From NCBI GenBank assembly GCA_027337125.1, contig GCA_027337125.1_3057.1: a stretch of 64,000 bases of DNA. One strand, written 5' to 3'. Shown piece after piece: positions 29,097-44,372 of this stretch (the first letter of the stretch is position 1; each line of letters opens with the position of its first letter). A program made the translations under genes and the position numbers. Source of the stretch: a phage. A model generated the notes under the pieces. It searched no databases and was not told where the DNA came from. It saw nothing but the letters and a program-made list of their open reading frames with translations.

Positions 29097-29549
29097 ATGG
29101 CATATTCTGGAAAATGGGTTCCTAAAAATATATCAAAATATAGAGGTGACCCTAAAAAAATTACGTATAGATCAAATTGGGAAAAATTCTTTTTTGAATG
29201 GTTAGATAAAAATCCAGAAATTATTGCATGGGGTAGTGAAACAGCAGTAATTCCTTATTTTTGTAATGCAGAAGGGAAAAAACGTAGATACTTCATGGAT
29301 ATTTGGATGAAAGATTCTTCTGGACAAGAATTTTTTATTGAAATAAAGCCTAAAAAAGAAACACAACCACCAGTTAAACCAGCACATCTAACAACTGCAG
29401 CGAAGAAAAGATTTATGAATGAAATTTATACATATTCCGTTAATACTGACAAATGGAAAGCAGCACAATCTTTAGCTGAAAAGCGTGGAATAAAATTTAG
29501 AATTCTAACAGAAGATGGATTACGAGCTCTTGGCTTTAAGGGGGCATAA
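29097..29549 (+). CDS. 4: Head completion protein gp4
   Basis: 150 aa as T4 gp4. Confidence 0.92.
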
Positions 29550-30376
29550 TGGCTATTTTTCAAATAATTAATGAAAGCACTCCCCAAGTTCCAAAGGTTA
29601 AGCAATCATTAAACGAAAAGAAATGGATTCAGATAGGTCTTGAATACAAAAAGGCCAAAGCAAAAGGAATGACAGGAAAGCAATTTGCTGAAGAAAGAGG
29701 AATCAAATACTCTACGTTTACTTCGGCAATGTCAAAATATGCTTCAGGAATTAAAACGGCTGAAAAGATTCAAAAGCTTGAATCAAAACCAATGAATAAA
29801 CTCAATAAGCAAGAAAGACAACTGCTTATGATAAATTCATTCAGACAAACATTGCGTGATAAAATTCGTAATGAAGGCGCAGCAATTAATAATAAAACCA
29901 GAAAGTGGTTTGCTGAAACTATTAAGCAAGTAAAAGGACATAAAGTTGTTCGCCCGCAGCCGGGACGAATATATGCTTTTGCTTACGATGCTAAACACAA
30001 AGAAACTCTTCCTTATTGGGATAAATTTCCTTTGATAATTTACCTTGGTTTAGGTAAACATAATTTAATGTATGGATTGAACTTGCACTATATTCCACCT
30101 AAAGCTCGTCAACAGTTTCTAGAAGAGCTTTTAAAGCAATATTCAAATACACCTACTATTACTAATAAAACGAAATTAAAAATTGATTGGAGTCAAGTGA
30201 AAGGATTTAGGGGTGCAGACCAAATGATTAAGGCATATATACCCGGTAATATTATGGGTAGCCTTGTTGAAATCGCCCCGAAAGACTGGGCGAACGTTGT
30301 GTTAATGCCACTCCAAAGCTTCTACTCCAAAGGAAAACGTTTCTCTGCAAACAAAGTTTGGAGCAATGTACGATGA
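29549..30376 (+). CDS. 2: DNA end protector protein gp2
   Basis: 275 aa; follows gene 4 with overlapping stop/start. Confidence 0.92.
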
Positions 30377-31032
30377 ATTATGAAAAAATTTATAATTCAC
30401 TAATTGATAGGGCTCGCAATAGAGCCCTTACTGGATATAAAGAAAGACATCATATTATTCCGAAATGTTTAGGCGGTAGTAATGATGCTTCTAACTTGGT
30501 TGATTTAACTCCAGAAGAGCATTATGTTGCACATCAGCTATTAGTAAAAATACACCCAAATTCTTTAAAATTATCTTATGCAGCCATAAAAATGACGGTT
30601 TCAACTAAATATGTTAGGAGAAATAATAAAGTTTATGGTTGGTTAAAAAGAAAACATGCAAATAATATTTCAAATACACAAACTGGACGAAAATATTATA
30701 ATAATGGTAAAAGATGTATAAAATTGCATGATGGAGATATAATTCCTGAGGGATTTATTTTAGGAAGAGGATGGAGTCCGACACAAGGAACAACTCATTC
30801 TAGAAAAAATGACACATTTAAAAACAAAAAGCTTCAATCTGCTTTAGCTAATAAACGGTGGGAAAAAGAAAAGAAAATAATGTTAGATAACTTTGGAGTT
30901 AACACTATTGATGAAGCAAAGAAAATTGTTCTTGATTTAAAATCAACTTGTCATCCAAGATATTGGCGAAAGCCAACTTTAGAAAAATTTCCATTTATGA
31001 CTTCTGCTCGTTTAAGAAGTCTAATAAATTAA
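30373..31032 (+). CDS. Mob-family HNH homing endonuclease (free-standing) between genes 2 and 3
   Basis: [14 protein letters not shown]...[34 protein letters not shown]; ATG overlaps the gene 2 TGA (ATGA). Confidence 0.85.
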
Positions 31033-31138
31033 TTCTATTATCTTCCATTCTTTTCTATTGTTTGTTCTAATTGGAATTGAATGGAAGGGACTTAGACCCA
31101 TTATACCACCAACACTTATAAAGCATTATGAGGAATAT

Positions 31139-31669
31139 ATGTCGCAAGCACTACAACAAATTTTTAACCAAGCAAATACAACTAACTTTGTAGTATCAAT
31201 ACCGCATAGCAATACTACATCTGCTTTTACTTTAAATGCTCAGTCAGTTCCTATTCCAGGAATTAGAATACCTGTTACTGATACCGTGACTGGGCCGTTT
31301 GGACTAGGCAGAGCGCAACGTCCAGGAGTTACATTTGAGTACGATCCACTCATCGTGAGATTTATAGTTGACGAAGAGCTTAAGTCGTGGATAGGAATGT
31401 ATGAATGGATGCTAGGAACTAGTAACTATCTTACAGGTGAAAATACTGCCCAAAAAACAGGTCCTGAATACATTACGCTTTACATTTTAGATAATAGTAA
31501 AACTGAAATCGTGATGTCAATAAACTTTTATAAGCCTTGGGTTTCTGACCTGTCTGAAGTAGAATTTAGCTACACAGAAGATTCAGACCCAGCTTTAGTA
31601 TGCACAGCAACGATTCCTTATACGTATTTTCAAGTAGAAAAAGATGGCAAAATTATAGCAGAAGTTTAA
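31139..31669 (+). CDS. 3: Tail completion / sheath stabiliser gp3
   Basis: Start set at Met 28 of the track ORF (MSQALQQIFNQANTTNF), giving 176 aa as in T4 gp3; GAGG RBS upstream. Confidence 0.92.
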   Translation: MSQALQQIFNQANTTNFVVSIPHSNTTSAFTLNAQSVPIPGIRIPVTDTVTGPFGLGRAQRPGVTFEYDPLIVRFIVDEELKSWIGMYEWMLGTSNYLTGENTAQKTGPEYITLYILDNSKTEIVMSINFYKPWVSDLSEVEFSYTEDSDPALVCTATIPYTYFQVEKDGKIIAEV

Positions 31670-32432: not shown

Positions 32433-33129
<697 letters not shown>

Positions 33130-33201: not shown

Positions 33202-33489
33202 ATGAAAACTTTCAAAGAATTTACTTCTACAACTACCCCGGTTTCTACTATTACTGAAGCTACTCTTACTTCTGAAGTTATTAAAGCAAATAAAGGACGA
33301 GAAGGTAAACCAATGATTAGTTTGGTTGATGGCGAAGAAATCAAAGGTACTGTTTACCTAGGTGATGGGTGGTCTGCTAAAAAGGATGGTGCTACAATCA
33401 TTATCTCTCCTGCTGAAGAAACTGCGTTGTTTAAAGCTAAACACATTTCTGCGGCACATCTCAAGATTATTGCTAAAAATCTTTTGTAA
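33202..33489 (+). CDS. Capsid-targeted internal protein (IPI-locus type)
   Basis: 95 aa beginning MKTFKEF, the internal-protein capsid targeting sequence pattern (T4 IPs begin MKTYQEF); located after 57B as ipI is in T4. Confidence 0.75.
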   Translation: MKTFKEFTSTTTPVSTITEATLTSEVIKANKGREGKPMISLVDGEEIKGTVYLGDGWSAKKDGATIIISPAEETALFKAKHISAAHLKIIAKNLL

Positions 33490-34543: not shown

Positions 34544-34616
34544 TGGGAATTAGCCAAGTTGGTAAGGCATAGCACTTTGACTGCTAGATGCAAAGGTTCG
34601 AGTCCTTTATTCCCAG
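34544..34616 (+). tRNA. tRNA-Gln (anticodon UUG)
   Basis: Cloverleaf folded by hand: acceptor tgggaat/attccca, anticodon stem tagca/tgcta with loop ctTTGac, T-arm aaagg-ttcgagt-ccttt. Confidence 0.85.
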
Positions 34617-34617
34617 C

Positions 34618-34704
34618 GCGAGAATGGTCAAATTGGTAAAGGCACAGCACTTAAAATGCTGCGGAATGATTTCCTTGTGGGTTCGAGTCCCACTTCTCGT
34701 ACCA
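34618..34704 (+). tRNA. tRNA-Leu (anticodon UAA), long variable arm, encoded CCA
   Basis: Acceptor gcgagaa/ttctcgt, anticodon loop ctTAAaa, T-arm tgggttcgagtccca, 3' acca. Confidence 0.8.
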
Positions 34705-34710
34705 AAGTTT

Positions 34711-34782
<72 letters not shown>

Positions 34783-34794
34783 AAATTTAATTTA

Positions 34795-34868
34795 CTCCGT
34801 GTAGCTCAGTTTGGTAGAGCGTCTGCTTTGGGAGCAGAATGTCGCAGGTTCAAATCCTGCCACGGAGA
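34795..34868 (+). tRNA. tRNA-Pro (anticodon UGG)
   Basis: Acceptor ctccgtg/cacggag, anticodon stem tctgc/gcaga with loop ttTGGga, T-arm gcagg-ttcaaat-cctgc. Confidence 0.85.
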
Positions 34869-34870
34869 CT

Positions 34871-34957
34871 GGAGGCGTGGCAGAGTGGTTTAATGCACCG
34901 GTCTTGAAAACCGGCAGTCGCTCCGGCGACTCATAGGTTCAAATCCTATCGCCTCCG
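34871..34957 (+). tRNA. tRNA-Ser (anticodon UGA), long variable arm
   Basis: Acceptor ggaggcg/cgcctcc, anticodon stem ccggt/accgg with loop ctTGAaa, T-arm ataggttcaaatcctat. Confidence 0.85.
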
Positions 34958-34964
34958 TAATTTC

Positions 34965-35037
34965 GCTGATTTAGCTCAGTAGGTAGAGCACCTCACTTGT
35001 AATGAGGATGTCGGCGGTTCGATTCCGTCAATCAGCA
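34965..35037 (+). tRNA. tRNA-Thr (anticodon UGU)
   Basis: Acceptor gctgatt/aatcagc, anticodon stem cctca/tgagg with loop ctTGTaa, T-loop ggttcgattcc. Confidence 0.85.
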
Positions 35038-35043
35038 TATCAA

Positions 35044-35115
35044 GGCCCTGTAGCTGGAAGGTTCAAGCAAGCGACTCATAATCGCCAGATGGTGGTTCAA
35101 TTCCACCCAGGGCCA
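35044..35115 (+). tRNA. tRNA-Ile (anticodon CAU, lysidine-type) or Met-like
   Basis: Acceptor ggccctg/cagggcc, anticodon loop ctCATaa, T-arm ggtgg-ttcaatt-ccacc; T4 encodes a CAU tRNA-Ile at this position. Confidence 0.75.
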
Positions 35116-35156
35116 TATTTTGAGAACATAAATACTCTTAGAAATAGGAGATATTT

Positions 35157-35822
35157 ATGTTCCATTACATTTATAAAATAACAAATAAAATTAATAATAA
35201 AATCTATATAGGCGCTCATTCTACCGAAAATTTAGATGATGGATATATGGGTTCTGGTAAATTATTAAAAAGAGCCCAAGATAAATATGGTATAGAAAAT
35301 TTTTCTAAAGAAATATTAGAGTTCTTTGACGATAAAACCTCTATGTTTGAGTCAGAAAAGAATATTGTGACTGAAGAGTTTTTAAAGCGCCCTGATGTTT
35401 ATAATTTGAAATTAGGTGGTGAAGGTGGTTGGGACCATTTAAACACTAAAGAATATTTGGATAAAAAGAAAGAAGCTTCCTTAAAAGGAGCTGCCGCTTT
35501 TAAAACCAGATTTGAGAACGACCCAGACCTTAAAGAAAAATATCGTAAAATGGGTTCAGAAAGGTTTAAACAGCTTTGGGATAATCCTAAGTATAGAGAG
35601 AAATTTTTAAATACTAAATCTTTCTTGGGTAAGACCCATACTCCTGAAACTATTAATAAAATGAAAGAATCTCACGCCAGAAATAAACACCAACAAGGTG
35701 AAAAGAATTCCCAATTTGGCATGATGTGGATTCATTCATTAGATGAAAAAGTTTCTAAACGTATTAAGAAAACTGACCCAATTCCAGAAGGATGGTTTAA
35801 AGGTCGAAAAATGAAATTTTAA
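35157..35822 (+). CDS. segB: SegB-type GIY-YIG homing endonuclease within the tRNA cluster
   Basis: 221 aa; YIYKITNKINNKIYIGAHS (GIY-YIG), YMGSG, LGGEGG; sits between tRNA-Ile and tRNA-Arg as T4 segB does. Confidence 0.88.
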   Translation: MFHYIYKITNKINNKIYIGAHSTENLDDGYMGSGKLLKRAQDKYGIENFSKEILEFFDDKTSMFESEKNIVTEEFLKRPDVYNLKLGGEGGWDHLNTKEYLDKKKEASLKGAAAFKTRFENDPDLKEKYRKMGSERFKQLWDNPKYREKFLNTKSFLGKTHTPETINKMKESHARNKHQQGEKNSQFGMMWIHSLDEKVSKRIKKTDPIPEGWFKGRKMKF

Positions 35823-35825
35823 TTA

Positions 35826-35902
<77 letters not shown>

Positions 35903-39388: not shown

Positions 39389-40308
<920 letters not shown>

Positions 40309-40310
40309 TA

Positions 40311-40331
40311 AGGCCTATACTTAGGCCTATT
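40311..40331 (+). terminator. Hairpin aggccta-tact-taggcct after the IPIII-like gene
   Basis: 7-bp perfect stem followed by attt; weak terminator. Confidence 0.35.
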
Positions 40332-40455
40332 TACATTCAAATAACATGGGAACAAGCTGGACCTCATGATTCTGTGAGGGATTCCCGCCAACCTGTAATA
40401 AGGTCGAGCCCAAGTGCGGTAATGGGTAAATACAGAAACGGACAATTCATGCGCC

Positions 40456-41028
40456 ATGGAATGGCCCAAATTTAGAGATAACAAAATGAAAACATTTTTA
40501 ACTGGTCCTTATCTATCCCTGATGAATGCTTTTACACACCATTCTGATGCTAGAGTAGAAGAAATTTGTAATAGTGGATTTTATGTACCTGATTCGCCAC
40601 ATTTATTTAAAGAATACTGCACACTTCGACTAGATGGTGGACGTCAATCCGGTAAATCAACTGCAGTAACTAATTTTGCCGCTAATTGGTTGTATGACGG
40701 TGGAACAGTTATTGTTCTTTCTAATACTTCAGCTTACGCTAAAATTTCTGCGGGCCACATTAAAAAAGAATTTTCACGCTATTCTAATGATGATATTCGA
40801 TTCCGTTTATTTACTGATTCTGTCCGTAGTTTTGTTGGTAATAGAGGTAGCAAGTTCAGAGGTTTATCGCTTTCGCGGATTTTGTATATAATCGATGAGC
40901 CTGTTAAATCTCCTGATATGGATAAAATTTATGATATTCATATTGAAACTGTGCAACACTGCTGCAATAGTAAATGTTGCATTGGTGGTATTACTCGTCC
41001 ACAGTTTTTCGTAATCGGAATGCAATGA
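40456..41028 (+). CDS. P-loop NTPase-like protein (hypothetical)
   Basis: Walker A GGRQSGKST and Walker B-like ILYIIDE; alternative start at 40486 (MKTFLTG). Confidence 0.65.
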   Translation: MEWPKFRDNKMKTFLTGPYLSLMNAFTHHSDARVEEICNSGFYVPDSPHLFKEYCTLRLDGGRQSGKSTAVTNFAANWLYDGGTVIVLSNTSAYAKISAGHIKKEFSRYSNDDIRFRLFTDSVRSFVGNRGSKFRGLSLSRILYIIDEPVKSPDMDKIYDIHIETVQHCCNSKCCIGGITRPQFFVIGMQ

Positions 41029-41361: not shown

Positions 41362-41724
41362 ATGAAAGCATATCAAATTCTTGAAGGCACGCACAAAGGT
41401 ACTATTTATTTTGAAGATGGTATTCAAGCACGAATTATCGTTTCTAAAACCTTTAAAGAGGACTCTTTTGTAGACCCAGAAATTTTCTATGGTTTGCATG
41501 CCCGTGAAATTGAAATTGAGCCACAGCCTACAGTTAAAATTGAAGGTGGTCAGCACCTGAACGTTAACGTTCTGCGTCGTGAAACTCTGGAAGATGCAGT
41601 TAAGCATCCGGAAAAATATCCGCAGCTGACCATCCGTGTCTCCGGTTATGCAGTTCGCTTTAACTCTCTGACTCCGGAACAGCAGCGCGACGTTATCGCT
41701 CGTACCTTTACCGAGAGTTTGTAA
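41362..41724 (+). CDS. Autonomous glycyl-radical cofactor (GrcA/YfiD-like spare part)
   Basis: C-terminal [26 protein letters not shown] carries the glycyl-radical signature; 120 aa. Confidence 0.85.
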
Positions 41725-41945
41725 TGGCAAAGATAATTATTGAAGGTTCTAAAGATGTGCTAAATGCTTTCGCCGAATGGTTTAGTAATTCAGGCGAACA
41801 GCAATTTAATGAAGCATGGAACATGGGTGATATTAGTGGAATTTATCCTACGACAGAAATTTCTGTTCAGGGATATGGCATTCATGAACCTATTCGTTTA
41901 GTTGAATATGATTTGGGTACTGGTGAGGAAGTAAAATATGATTGA
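41724..41945 (+). CDS. Hypothetical protein
   Basis: 73-aa ORF, overlapping start/stop with neighbours. Confidence 0.55.
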   Translation: MAKIIIEGSKDVLNAFAEWFSNSGEQQFNEAWNMGDISGIYPTTEISVQGYGIHEPIRLVEYDLGTGEEVKYD

Positions 41946-42204
41946 AGATATTAAGGGTTATAAGCCACATACTGACGATAAAATCAGTAAAGTGAATGCT
42001 ATTAAAGATGCTGAAGTTCGTTTAGGACTTATCTTTGACGCTTTATATGATGAATTCTGGGAAGCACTAGATAATTGTGAAGACTGTGAATTCGCGAAGA
42101 ATTATGCTGAAAGCCTCGATCAGTTAACTATTGCTAAAACGAAACTCAAAGAAGCCAGTATGTGGGCTTGTCGTGCTGTGTTCCAACCAGAGGAAAAATA
42201 TTAA
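41938..42204 (+). CDS. Hypothetical protein at the vs.4 position (candidate Acb2-type cyclic-nucleotide sponge)
   Basis: 88-aa acidic helical protein, second ORF upstream of regB; assignment is by synteny and size only. Confidence 0.5.
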
Positions 42205-42482
42205 TGGCTCAATTAAGCGCAGGGTTTGGTTATGAGTATTATACTGCCCCTCGTCGTGTATCTGTTGCTCCTAAGAAAATTCAAAGTCTTGATGACTTCC
42301 AGGAAGTAGTTCGTAAAGCTTTCCATGACTATGCGAGTTATCTTAAAGAAGATTCACAGGACTGTCTCGAAGAAGATGAAATTGCTTACTATGAGCAGCG
42401 TCTTGAACAGCTTAAAAACCTACATGAGGTTCGTGCAGAAGTTTCAAAGTCTATGAATAAATTGATTAGATTTAAAGAATAA
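42204..42482 (+). CDS. Hypothetical protein (vs.3 position)
   Basis: Start set at Met 15 of the track ORF ([13 protein letters not shown]), TAATG overlap, GAGG RBS. Confidence 0.55.
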
Positions 42483-42484
42483 CT

Positions 42485-42514
42485 GTTTACTTTTCCTCTT
42501 GACTGTGGTATAAT
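42485..42514 (+). promoter_or_regulatory. T4-type early promoter upstream of regB
   Basis: -35 gtttac, 18-nt spacer, -10 tataat; AGGAG RBS follows. Confidence 0.6.
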
Positions 42515-42541: not shown

Positions 42542-43003
42542 ATGACTATCAACACAGAAGTTTTTATCCGTCGAAATAAGCTCCGTCGTCACTTTGAGTC
42601 GGAGTTTCGTCAAATTAACAATGAGATTCGTGAGGCATCAAAAGCAGCAGGGGTCTCATCGTTTCATCTAAAATATTCTCAACATCTTCTTGATCGTGCA
42701 ATTCAACGGGAGATTGATGAGACATATGTTTTTGAATTATTCCATAAAATAAAAGACCATGTTTTAGAAGTTAATGAATTCCTAAGTATGCCTCCGCGTC
42801 CTGACATTAATGAGGATTTTATTGATGGGGTTGAATATCGTCCTGGGCGTTTAGAAATCACCGATGGAAATCTTTGGCTTGGATTTACAGTTTGTAAACC
42901 TAACGAGAAGTTCAAAGACCCGTCACTTCAGTGCAGGATGGCAATTATCAACAGTCGTCGTTTACCGGGAAAGGCTTCTAAAGCAGTAATTAAAACTCAA
43001 TGA
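42542..43003 (+). CDS. regB: RegB endoribonuclease
   Basis: 153 aa, MTINTEVFIRRNKLRRHFESEFRQINNEIREASK..., same length as T4 RegB. Confidence 0.92.
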   Translation: MTINTEVFIRRNKLRRHFESEFRQINNEIREASKAAGVSSFHLKYSQHLLDRAIQREIDETYVFELFHKIKDHVLEVNEFLSMPPRPDINEDFIDGVEYRPGRLEITDGNLWLGFTVCKPNEKFKDPSLQCRMAIINSRRLPGKASKAVIKTQ

Positions 43004-43556: not shown

Positions 43557-43896
43557 AATTTTGGTTTTATGTATAGGATTAATTTCATTTTCTGCTTATG
43601 CGTCAGCAGATACATCATATACTGAAATTAGAGAGTATGTAAACCGTACTGCCGCGGATTATTGCGGGAAAAATAAAGCATGCCAAGCTGAATTTGCGCA
43701 GAAATTAATATATGCATATAAAGACGGAGAAAGAGATAAATCAAGCAGATACAAAAATGATACTTTATTAAAACGATATGCTAAAAAGTGGAATACCTTA
43801 GAATGTTCAGTTGCGGAGGAGAAAGATAAAGCCGCTTGTCATTCAATGGTTGACCGTTTGGTAGATTCTTATAATCGAGGATTGAGTACTAGATGA
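43549..43896 (+). CDS. Vs-like protein with signal peptide (by position)
   Basis: 115 aa, signal-peptide-like N-terminus, four Cys; naming by synteny only. Confidence 0.6.
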   Translation: MTKILVLCIGLISFSAYASADTSYTEIREYVNRTAADYCGKNKACQAEFAQKLIYAYKDGERDKSSRYKNDTLLKRYAKKWNTLECSVAEEKDKAACHSMVDRLVDSYNRGLSTR

Positions 43897-44372
43897 TTGT
43901 AAAATATATCAAGGGCGATATTGTCGCCCTATTTCTTCAAGGTAATATTATTGCGCATGGGTGCAACTGCTTTCATACTATGGGTTCAGGTGTAGCAGGT
44001 CAATTAGCAAGGGCCTATCCTAAAATTTTAGAAATAGATAAAACCACAACTGAATATGGTTCGCGTGAAAAACTTGGTGATATGTCTATTGTTTTTAAAC
44101 ATAATCCTACAGGATTTGGTATATGCTATAACCTGTATACACAATACGAACCAGGTCCTAATCTTGATTATGGTGCTTTAGTAAACTGCATGATAGAATT
44201 AAATCTACAGGCAGAAACCCTTTTGTTTAAACCAGTAATTTACATTCCACGCATAGGTTGTGGTATTGCTGGCGGTGATTGGGATAAGGTTTCTAAATTA
44301 ATCGACATGTTTACTCCTGATATTGATTTAATAGTGGTGGATTATGAAAGCACATTACCCGCATCCGTTTGA
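43893..44372 (+). CDS. Macro-domain protein (ADP-ribose binding/hydrolase fold)
   Basis: KGDIVALFLQGNIIAHGCNCFHTMGSGVAGQL and IPRIGCGIAGGDW match the macro-domain N-terminal Gly-rich and C-terminal G-x-G-x-x-G motifs (compare E. coli YmdB). Confidence 0.75.
   Translation: MIVKYIKGDIVALFLQGNIIAHGCNCFHTMGSGVAGQLARAYPKILEIDKTTTEYGSREKLGDMSIVFKHNPTGFGICYNLYTQYEPGPNLDYGALVNCMIELNLQAETLLFKPVIYIPRIGCGIAGGDWDKVSKLIDMFTPDIDLIVVDYESTLPASV

Follow-up and report, generated by a model that had tools for sequence, protein, structure and literature searches.

Organization of the vs.4 locus

The window, meaning the whole 64-kb stretch of DNA that was analyzed, comes from a T4-like (Tequatrovirus) genome and runs in the direction of early-gene transcription. 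The gene under study lies in the e-to-tk early region, in the same orientation as in T4 (Table 1), and the surrounding 1.8 kb are 97-99% identical to hundreds of T4-like phages of Escherichia, Shigella and Yersinia. The ORF starts with ATG and ends with TAA, the last A of which is the first base of the vs.3 ATG, in agreement with the start of vs.3 in the original prediction. At its 5' end, the last 8 nt of vs.5, stop codon included, are also the first 8 nt of vs.4, and translational coupling of the two genes is therefore likely. A putative Shine-Dalgarno sequence, GGTGAGGAAG, is found within the 3' end of vs.5, with GAGGA at 41925..41929, 8 nt before the vs.4 ATG, and the same sequence stands upstream of vs.4 in both T4 and phage P8. 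Opposite vs.4, the other strand has no competing frame, long or short, and an Rfam scan of the whole window returned eight tRNAs only, with no RNA family near the locus.

Table 1. Coordinates of vs.4, its signals and neighbours, and other features of the window mentioned in the text
Feature	Coordinates	Strand	Description
Gene 2	29549..30376		
Homing-endonuclease ORF	30358..31032		224 aa; PHROG 655, E = 4e-59; HHIIPK motif
Gene 3	31058..31669		
57B/acb1	32674..33129	+	cyclic-oligonucleotide phosphodiesterase; about 9 kb upstream of vs.4; 151/151 residues identical to T4 57B
IpI	33202..33489		Pfam IPI_T4, 178.7 bits
Eight tRNA genes	34544..35902		after IpI
GIY-YIG (seg-like) endonuclease ORF	35157..35822		between tRNA-Met and tRNA-Arg
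Lysozyme e	39425..39913		
IpIII-like ORF	39910..40308		132 aa; PHROG 5341
Terminator-like hairpin	40311..40328		3' of the IpIII-like gene
Frame matching Vs.8 residues 1-32	40374..40469		
Frame matching remainder of Vs.8	40453..41025		
vs.6	41362..41724		GrcA-like glycyl-radical spare-part protein; Pfam Gly_radical, 66.8 bits; 99% identical to T4 Vs.6
vs.5 homologue	41724..41945	+	73 aa; PHROG 1986
Shine-Dalgarno-like GGTGAGGAAG	41922..41931	+	read from the sequence, putative function
vs.4/acb2 CDS	41938..42204	+	88 aa plus stop, 267 nt; candidate cyclic-dinucleotide sponge
vs.3 homologue	42204..42482	+	92 aa; 95.7% identical to T4 Vs.3
Sigma-70-like site	42486..42514		after vs.3, ahead of regB
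regB endoribonuclease	42542..43003	+	Pfam REGB_T4, 230 bits; 99.3% identical to T4 RegB
tk.4 macro-domain ORF	43893..44372		159 aa; Pfam Macro, 34 bits; 58% identical to T4 Tk.4

The arrangement of vs.5 is not the same in all relatives. In the T4 reference a 1-nt deletion shifts the frame and yields a 58-aa Vs.5 that ends 36 nt before vs.4, whereas the product of the window has 73 aa and its gene overlaps vs.4; phage P8 has the 73-aa form with the same 8-nt overlap (locus L001, 3882..4058, belongs to the same comparison). The first half of PHROG 17468, a profile of 163 positions, is what Vs.5 matches, a hint that some phages may have Vs.5-Vs.4 fusions in their annotation.

A consensus sigma-70 scan and pattern scans for MotA boxes and for early and late promoters gave no convincing promoter between the terminator-like hairpin and vs.4, and the only strong sigma-70-like site nearby is the one ahead of regB. 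In the series vs.8 to vs.3, stop codons adjoin or overlap the start codons that follow, and this packing suggests that these genes are co-transcribed and translationally coupled. It is likewise from gene packing that we infer the mode and timing of vs.4 transcription.

The early region departs from T4 in several places. In the stretch 39425..40460, lysozyme e is followed directly by the IpIII-like ORF, which has a capsid-targeting leader and shares 88% identity with the last 115 aa of T4 IpIII, and then by vs.8. T4 DenV and IpII gave no tblastn match within the 64-kb window; at the spot between e and vs.8, denV is absent from T2 too and present in phage P8. Unless its gene lies beyond the window, the pyrimidine-dimer glycosylase may be missing from this phage. 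Within 40374..41028, the first 32 residues of T4 Vs.8 (219 aa) match one frame and the remainder another, and vs.8 is consequently split or shortened, leaving a 190-aa ORF (PHROG 1488) with a P-loop-like GGRQSGKST. The GrcA-like gene vs.6 stands two genes upstream of acb2. Downstream, tk.4 is a locally divergent allele in a near-identical block, its neighbours vs, vs.1 and regB being 99% identical to T4. Farther away, a homing-endonuclease ORF sits between genes 2 and 3, where the gap in T4 is about 100 nt, and a seg-like endonuclease ORF is found among the tRNA genes.

Kinship with T4 Vs.4 and the Acb2 family

The ORF is almost certainly the Tequatrovirus allele of vs.4/acb2, and by its sequence the product would be a hexameric cyclic-dinucleotide sponge like T4 Vs.4. 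The assignment to Acb2 had originally been a guess from synteny and size, and it is borne out by direct comparison. Along the full length of the protein, 85 of the 88 residues (96.6%) are identical to T4 Vs.4 in PDB entry 7UQ2, which was crystallized with cGAMP (E = 9e-56, PDB sequence search), and the same count is obtained against vs.4 of the T4 reference NC_000866 (63078-63344). The match to the Pfam profile PF24729 (Acb2/Tad1 hairpin) reaches 70.6 bits, the cut-off being 27, and covers it completely (profile positions 1-58 of 58). PHROG 717, the family from which Jenson et al. drew their Vs.4 homologues (PMC10097602), is matched with E = 3.8e-32. After 7UQ2, the next PDB sequence matches are the PaMx33 Acb2 entries 8H2J and 8IXZ, which are weak (E about 0.09) and collinear.

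Position leads to the same gene. The order vs.8, vs.7, vs.6/GrcA, vs.5, vs.4, vs.3, regB, vs.1, vs, tk.4 is that of T4, both in the T4 annotation and by tblastn of the T4 proteins onto the window, so that counting upstream from regB does lead, as originally predicted, to the vs.4 slot, between vs.5 and vs.3 and two genes upstream of regB. T4 vs.4 is likewise 267 nt long and likewise abuts vs.3 with one common base; a miscount of the synteny is ruled out by the matching gene order and the equal length. Nor is this a chance ORF: relative to T4, 8 of its codons have synonymous changes and 3 have conservative non-synonymous ones, the former in keeping with purifying selection, and tblastn with the protein finds it in 1240 phage records.

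The protein was described beforehand as acidic and helical. It is acidic, having 19 D + E versus 12 K + R, with a computed pI of 4.6 and a mass of 10.2 kDa, and a two-helix hairpin is predicted, with helices at residues 13-45 and 50-81. The hairpin appears in a single-sequence AF2 model of moderate confidence (pLDDT 73.6), made without an alignment. A Foldseek search of the PDB with this model placed 7UQ2 on top (E = 1e-9, TM 0.57, a match that is largely sequence-driven), followed by PaMx33 Acb2 (8H2X, 8H2J). With its moderate confidence and TM score, the model adds little beyond the sequence comparison; the fold would follow instead from the known structure of a protein that is 97% identical.

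Among the known systems, T4 Vs.4/Acb2 (NP_049728; 7UQ2) is the closest characterized counterpart, with the same length and slot, the same D61 and T68, and the same contact, helix-cap and interface residues. The Shigella phage ESh36 (ASZ76035.1) and the Escherichia phage vB_EcoM_SP1 (MT682709) encode a protein that does not differ from that of the window in any residue, and this exact 88-aa sequence is present on 52 contigs. Its UniRef title is 'Acb2/Tad1 hairpin domain-containing protein'. In GenBank the gene is still a 'hypothetical protein' in the majority of records of T4-like phages, and one record or more, from a close relative, already has it as 'anti-CBASS protein 2'. The gene is therefore already known: its family is established and structurally solved, its sequence is public, and nothing about it is new. 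More distant is PaMx33 Acb2 (p26; 8H2J, 8H2X, 8IXZ), the founding member from a Pseudomonas phage, which belongs to the same Pfam family and aligns end to end, its Y11 and K26 corresponding to Y8 and K23 of the window (PMC10312549). The T4 protein is reported to be 24% identical to it (PMC10312549).

The functional anatomy of the T4 protein is well described. Its Kd for 3',3'-cGAMP is about 30 nM (Jenson et al. 2023, PMC10097602), and the hexamer takes up three cGAMP molecules without cleaving them, one in every pocket that a pair of protomers forms; the bases are stacked by Y8 and F82, and polar or ionic contacts come from Y8, H11, K23 and R79 (PMC10097602). Inhibition of the CBASS effector CapV is abolished by mutations at T12, S74 and A77 and by interface mutations at L29, A66, A73 and A77, and F33A destabilizes the hexamer (PMC10097602). 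A T4 mutant deleted for vs.4 is sensitized to CBASS (PMC10097602, PMC12657218). All of these residues are found in the window as they are in T4, namely the cGAMP contacts Y8, H11, K23, S74, R79 and F82, the helix cap T12, and L29, F33, A66, A73 and A77 of the hexamer interface. Hexamer formation, cGAMP binding and the effect in vivo are here carried over from the 97%-identical T4 protein, and would hold to the extent that the two behave alike.

Natural variation and alternative readings of the allele

The three residues that differ from T4 (E13D, E14D and G17S) lie at the start of helix 1, directly after the H11/T12 segment that forms the ligand loop and helix cap. To place them, 46 related IMG/VR loci were collected; 41 of them, with the window added, made up an alignment of 42 full-length sequences (38 distinct), and positions 13, 14 and 17 were also compared in 15 members of the cluster at 90% identity. 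Among the 38 distinct T4-like homologues, Y8, H11, K23, A66, S74, A77, R79 and F82 are invariant, the N- and C-terminal segments are nearly so, and residues 34-69, which surround the hairpin tip, are hypervariable. Columns 13, 14 and 17 are among the variable ones, and D is the majority state at both position 13 (23/38) and position 14 (20/38). Distant lineages (L010, L011 and L013) have S17 too, inside the same motif as in the window. Given this variability and the majority states, the three changes look like ordinary polymorphism, and a functional importance of E13D, E14D and G17S was set aside.

All three non-synonymous differences fall within five residues next to H11/T12; by our own enumeration, three changes placed at random would be grouped this tightly in about 0.5% of cases. 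Some Acb2 homologues bind 3'cADPR (PMC12393519). The D13/D14/S17 allele might have a ligand spectrum shifted from that of T4, for example with weaker binding of the Panoptes decoy 2',3'-c-di-AMP or a gain of cyclic trinucleotides or 3'cADPR. We regard this as very unlikely, since the three residues are common natural variants and none is a reported ligand contact (PMC10097602); moreover, the residues tied to the failure of the T4 protein to bind trinucleotides (the context of D61 and T68) are unchanged. Lying directly after the ligand loop, residues 13, 14 and 17 may change affinity or selectivity in degree. Tuning of specificity has been proposed as an escape route in the work on the Panoptes defence (PMC12657218), and a still less probable form of the argument is that the allele is tuned in this sense, keeping the sequestration of 3',3'-cGAMP and binding decoys such as 2',3'-c-di-AMP less. 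If this were true, the phage would evade CBASS without tripping Panoptes-type guards, and the cluster of changes by H11/T12 would be the signature of an arms race.

The opposite possibility is a sponge that has been lost, as in phage T2, whose allele no longer binds cyclic dinucleotides. T4 Acb2 is needed, and also enough, to trigger Panoptes (OptSE), a defence based on decoy nucleotides, and Y8 and F82 are required for this (PMC12657218); T2 carries a lesion in the Vs.4 binding site (PMC12657218). In our alignment, T2 Vs.4 (NC_054931, YP_010073770; L004, 8591..8851) begins MKILRD-KPHT and is without I5 to Y8, the stacking tyrosine included, although it occupies the same slot and is identical to the window from K9 on except at positions 13, 14 and 17. 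Disrupted copies occur elsewhere as well, as vs.4 is frameshifted or truncated in 3 of 44 IMG/VR relatives: a C-terminal frameshift removes R79 and F82 in L045, and stops follow after 26 aa in L048 and after 74 aa in L049, the latter on a contig of 180,500 bp. Natural loss of the sponge is one possible source of these cases and of T2, and sequencing errors are another. That the gene of the window is such a decayed or inactivated acb2, perhaps selected by decoy-sensing systems such as Panoptes, is scarcely credible. The ORF has its full length and a T4-type N-terminus, Y8, H11, K23, S74, R79 and F82 are intact, and it departs from T4 only by conservative changes that are frequent among its relatives; the alignment, the intact ORF and the pocket residues together rule out an inactive allele of the T2 type. 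With its stacking tyrosine in place, Vs.4 of the window is predicted to be active like the T4 protein, unlike that of T2.

Predicted ligand range and role in defence evasion

The preferred reading, a functional sponge of the T4 type, also sets expectations for the ligands. Cao et al. measured a Kd of about 84 nM of T4-Acb2 for 3',3'-cGAMP and saw no binding of cA3 or cAAG (PMC10312549). The second pocket of PaMx33 Acb2, which accepts cyclic trinucleotides, involves R67 and T74 and a kinked helix (PMC10312549); the T4-type proteins, including that of the window, have D61 instead, and the failure of T4-Acb2 on trinucleotides has been linked to this replacement of R67 and to an unkinked helix (PMC10312549). 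The window has D61 in place of R67 and retains T68, exactly as T4-Acb2 does, and is without the R67/T74 feature of the second pocket, which is found in a subset only. With D61 and T68 as in T4, its Vs.4 should bind cyclic dinucleotides and not cyclic trinucleotides.

A mechanism can be proposed on this basis. The 10-kDa helical-hairpin protein would assemble as a hexamer, whose three inter-protomer pockets would hold 3',3'-cGAMP and related cyclic dinucleotides with an affinity in the tens of nM, through aromatic stacking by Y8 and F82 and polar or ionic contacts from Y8, H11, K23, R79 and S74. The signal would be sequestered without being degraded, CBASS effectors such as CapV would stay inactive, and the phage would replicate. 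Cyclic trinucleotides, which Vs.4 is predicted to leave unbound, could be hydrolyzed by Acb1 (57B) of the same genome.

The presence of 57B/Acb1, also expected from the original prediction, was verified by the Pfam profile PF23474 (Acb1; 202.7 bits, cut-off 27) and by a match to Acb1 in PDB entry 7T26 (E = 4e-62). An enzymatic and a sequestration route against cyclic-nucleotide immunity are thus both encoded, as had been suggested, and T4 has the same pair, already published (PMC12657218). Just downstream of acb1 lies IpI, whose Pfam family is described as 'Nuclease inhibitor from bacteriophage T4', another anti-defence gene.

Intact Acb2 together with Acb1 predicts resistance to cGAMP-type CBASS systems with moderate signal output, with trinucleotide signals predicted to be covered by Acb1 and not by Acb2. 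The same intact binding site would be a liability, as Vs.4 of the window should trigger decoy-nucleotide guards such as Panoptes. Since the N-terminus of its Vs.4 is of the T4 type and intact, the phage should escape CBASS of the cGAMP type and be sensed by Panoptes-like systems, to which it is predicted to be sensitive, unlike T2. The main value of the analysis is one of annotation, in that a 'hypothetical protein' of the T4-like phages corresponds to a structurally and genetically characterized anti-CBASS sponge. No new question is opened by the predictions, which are useful for considerations of host range or the design of phage therapy.
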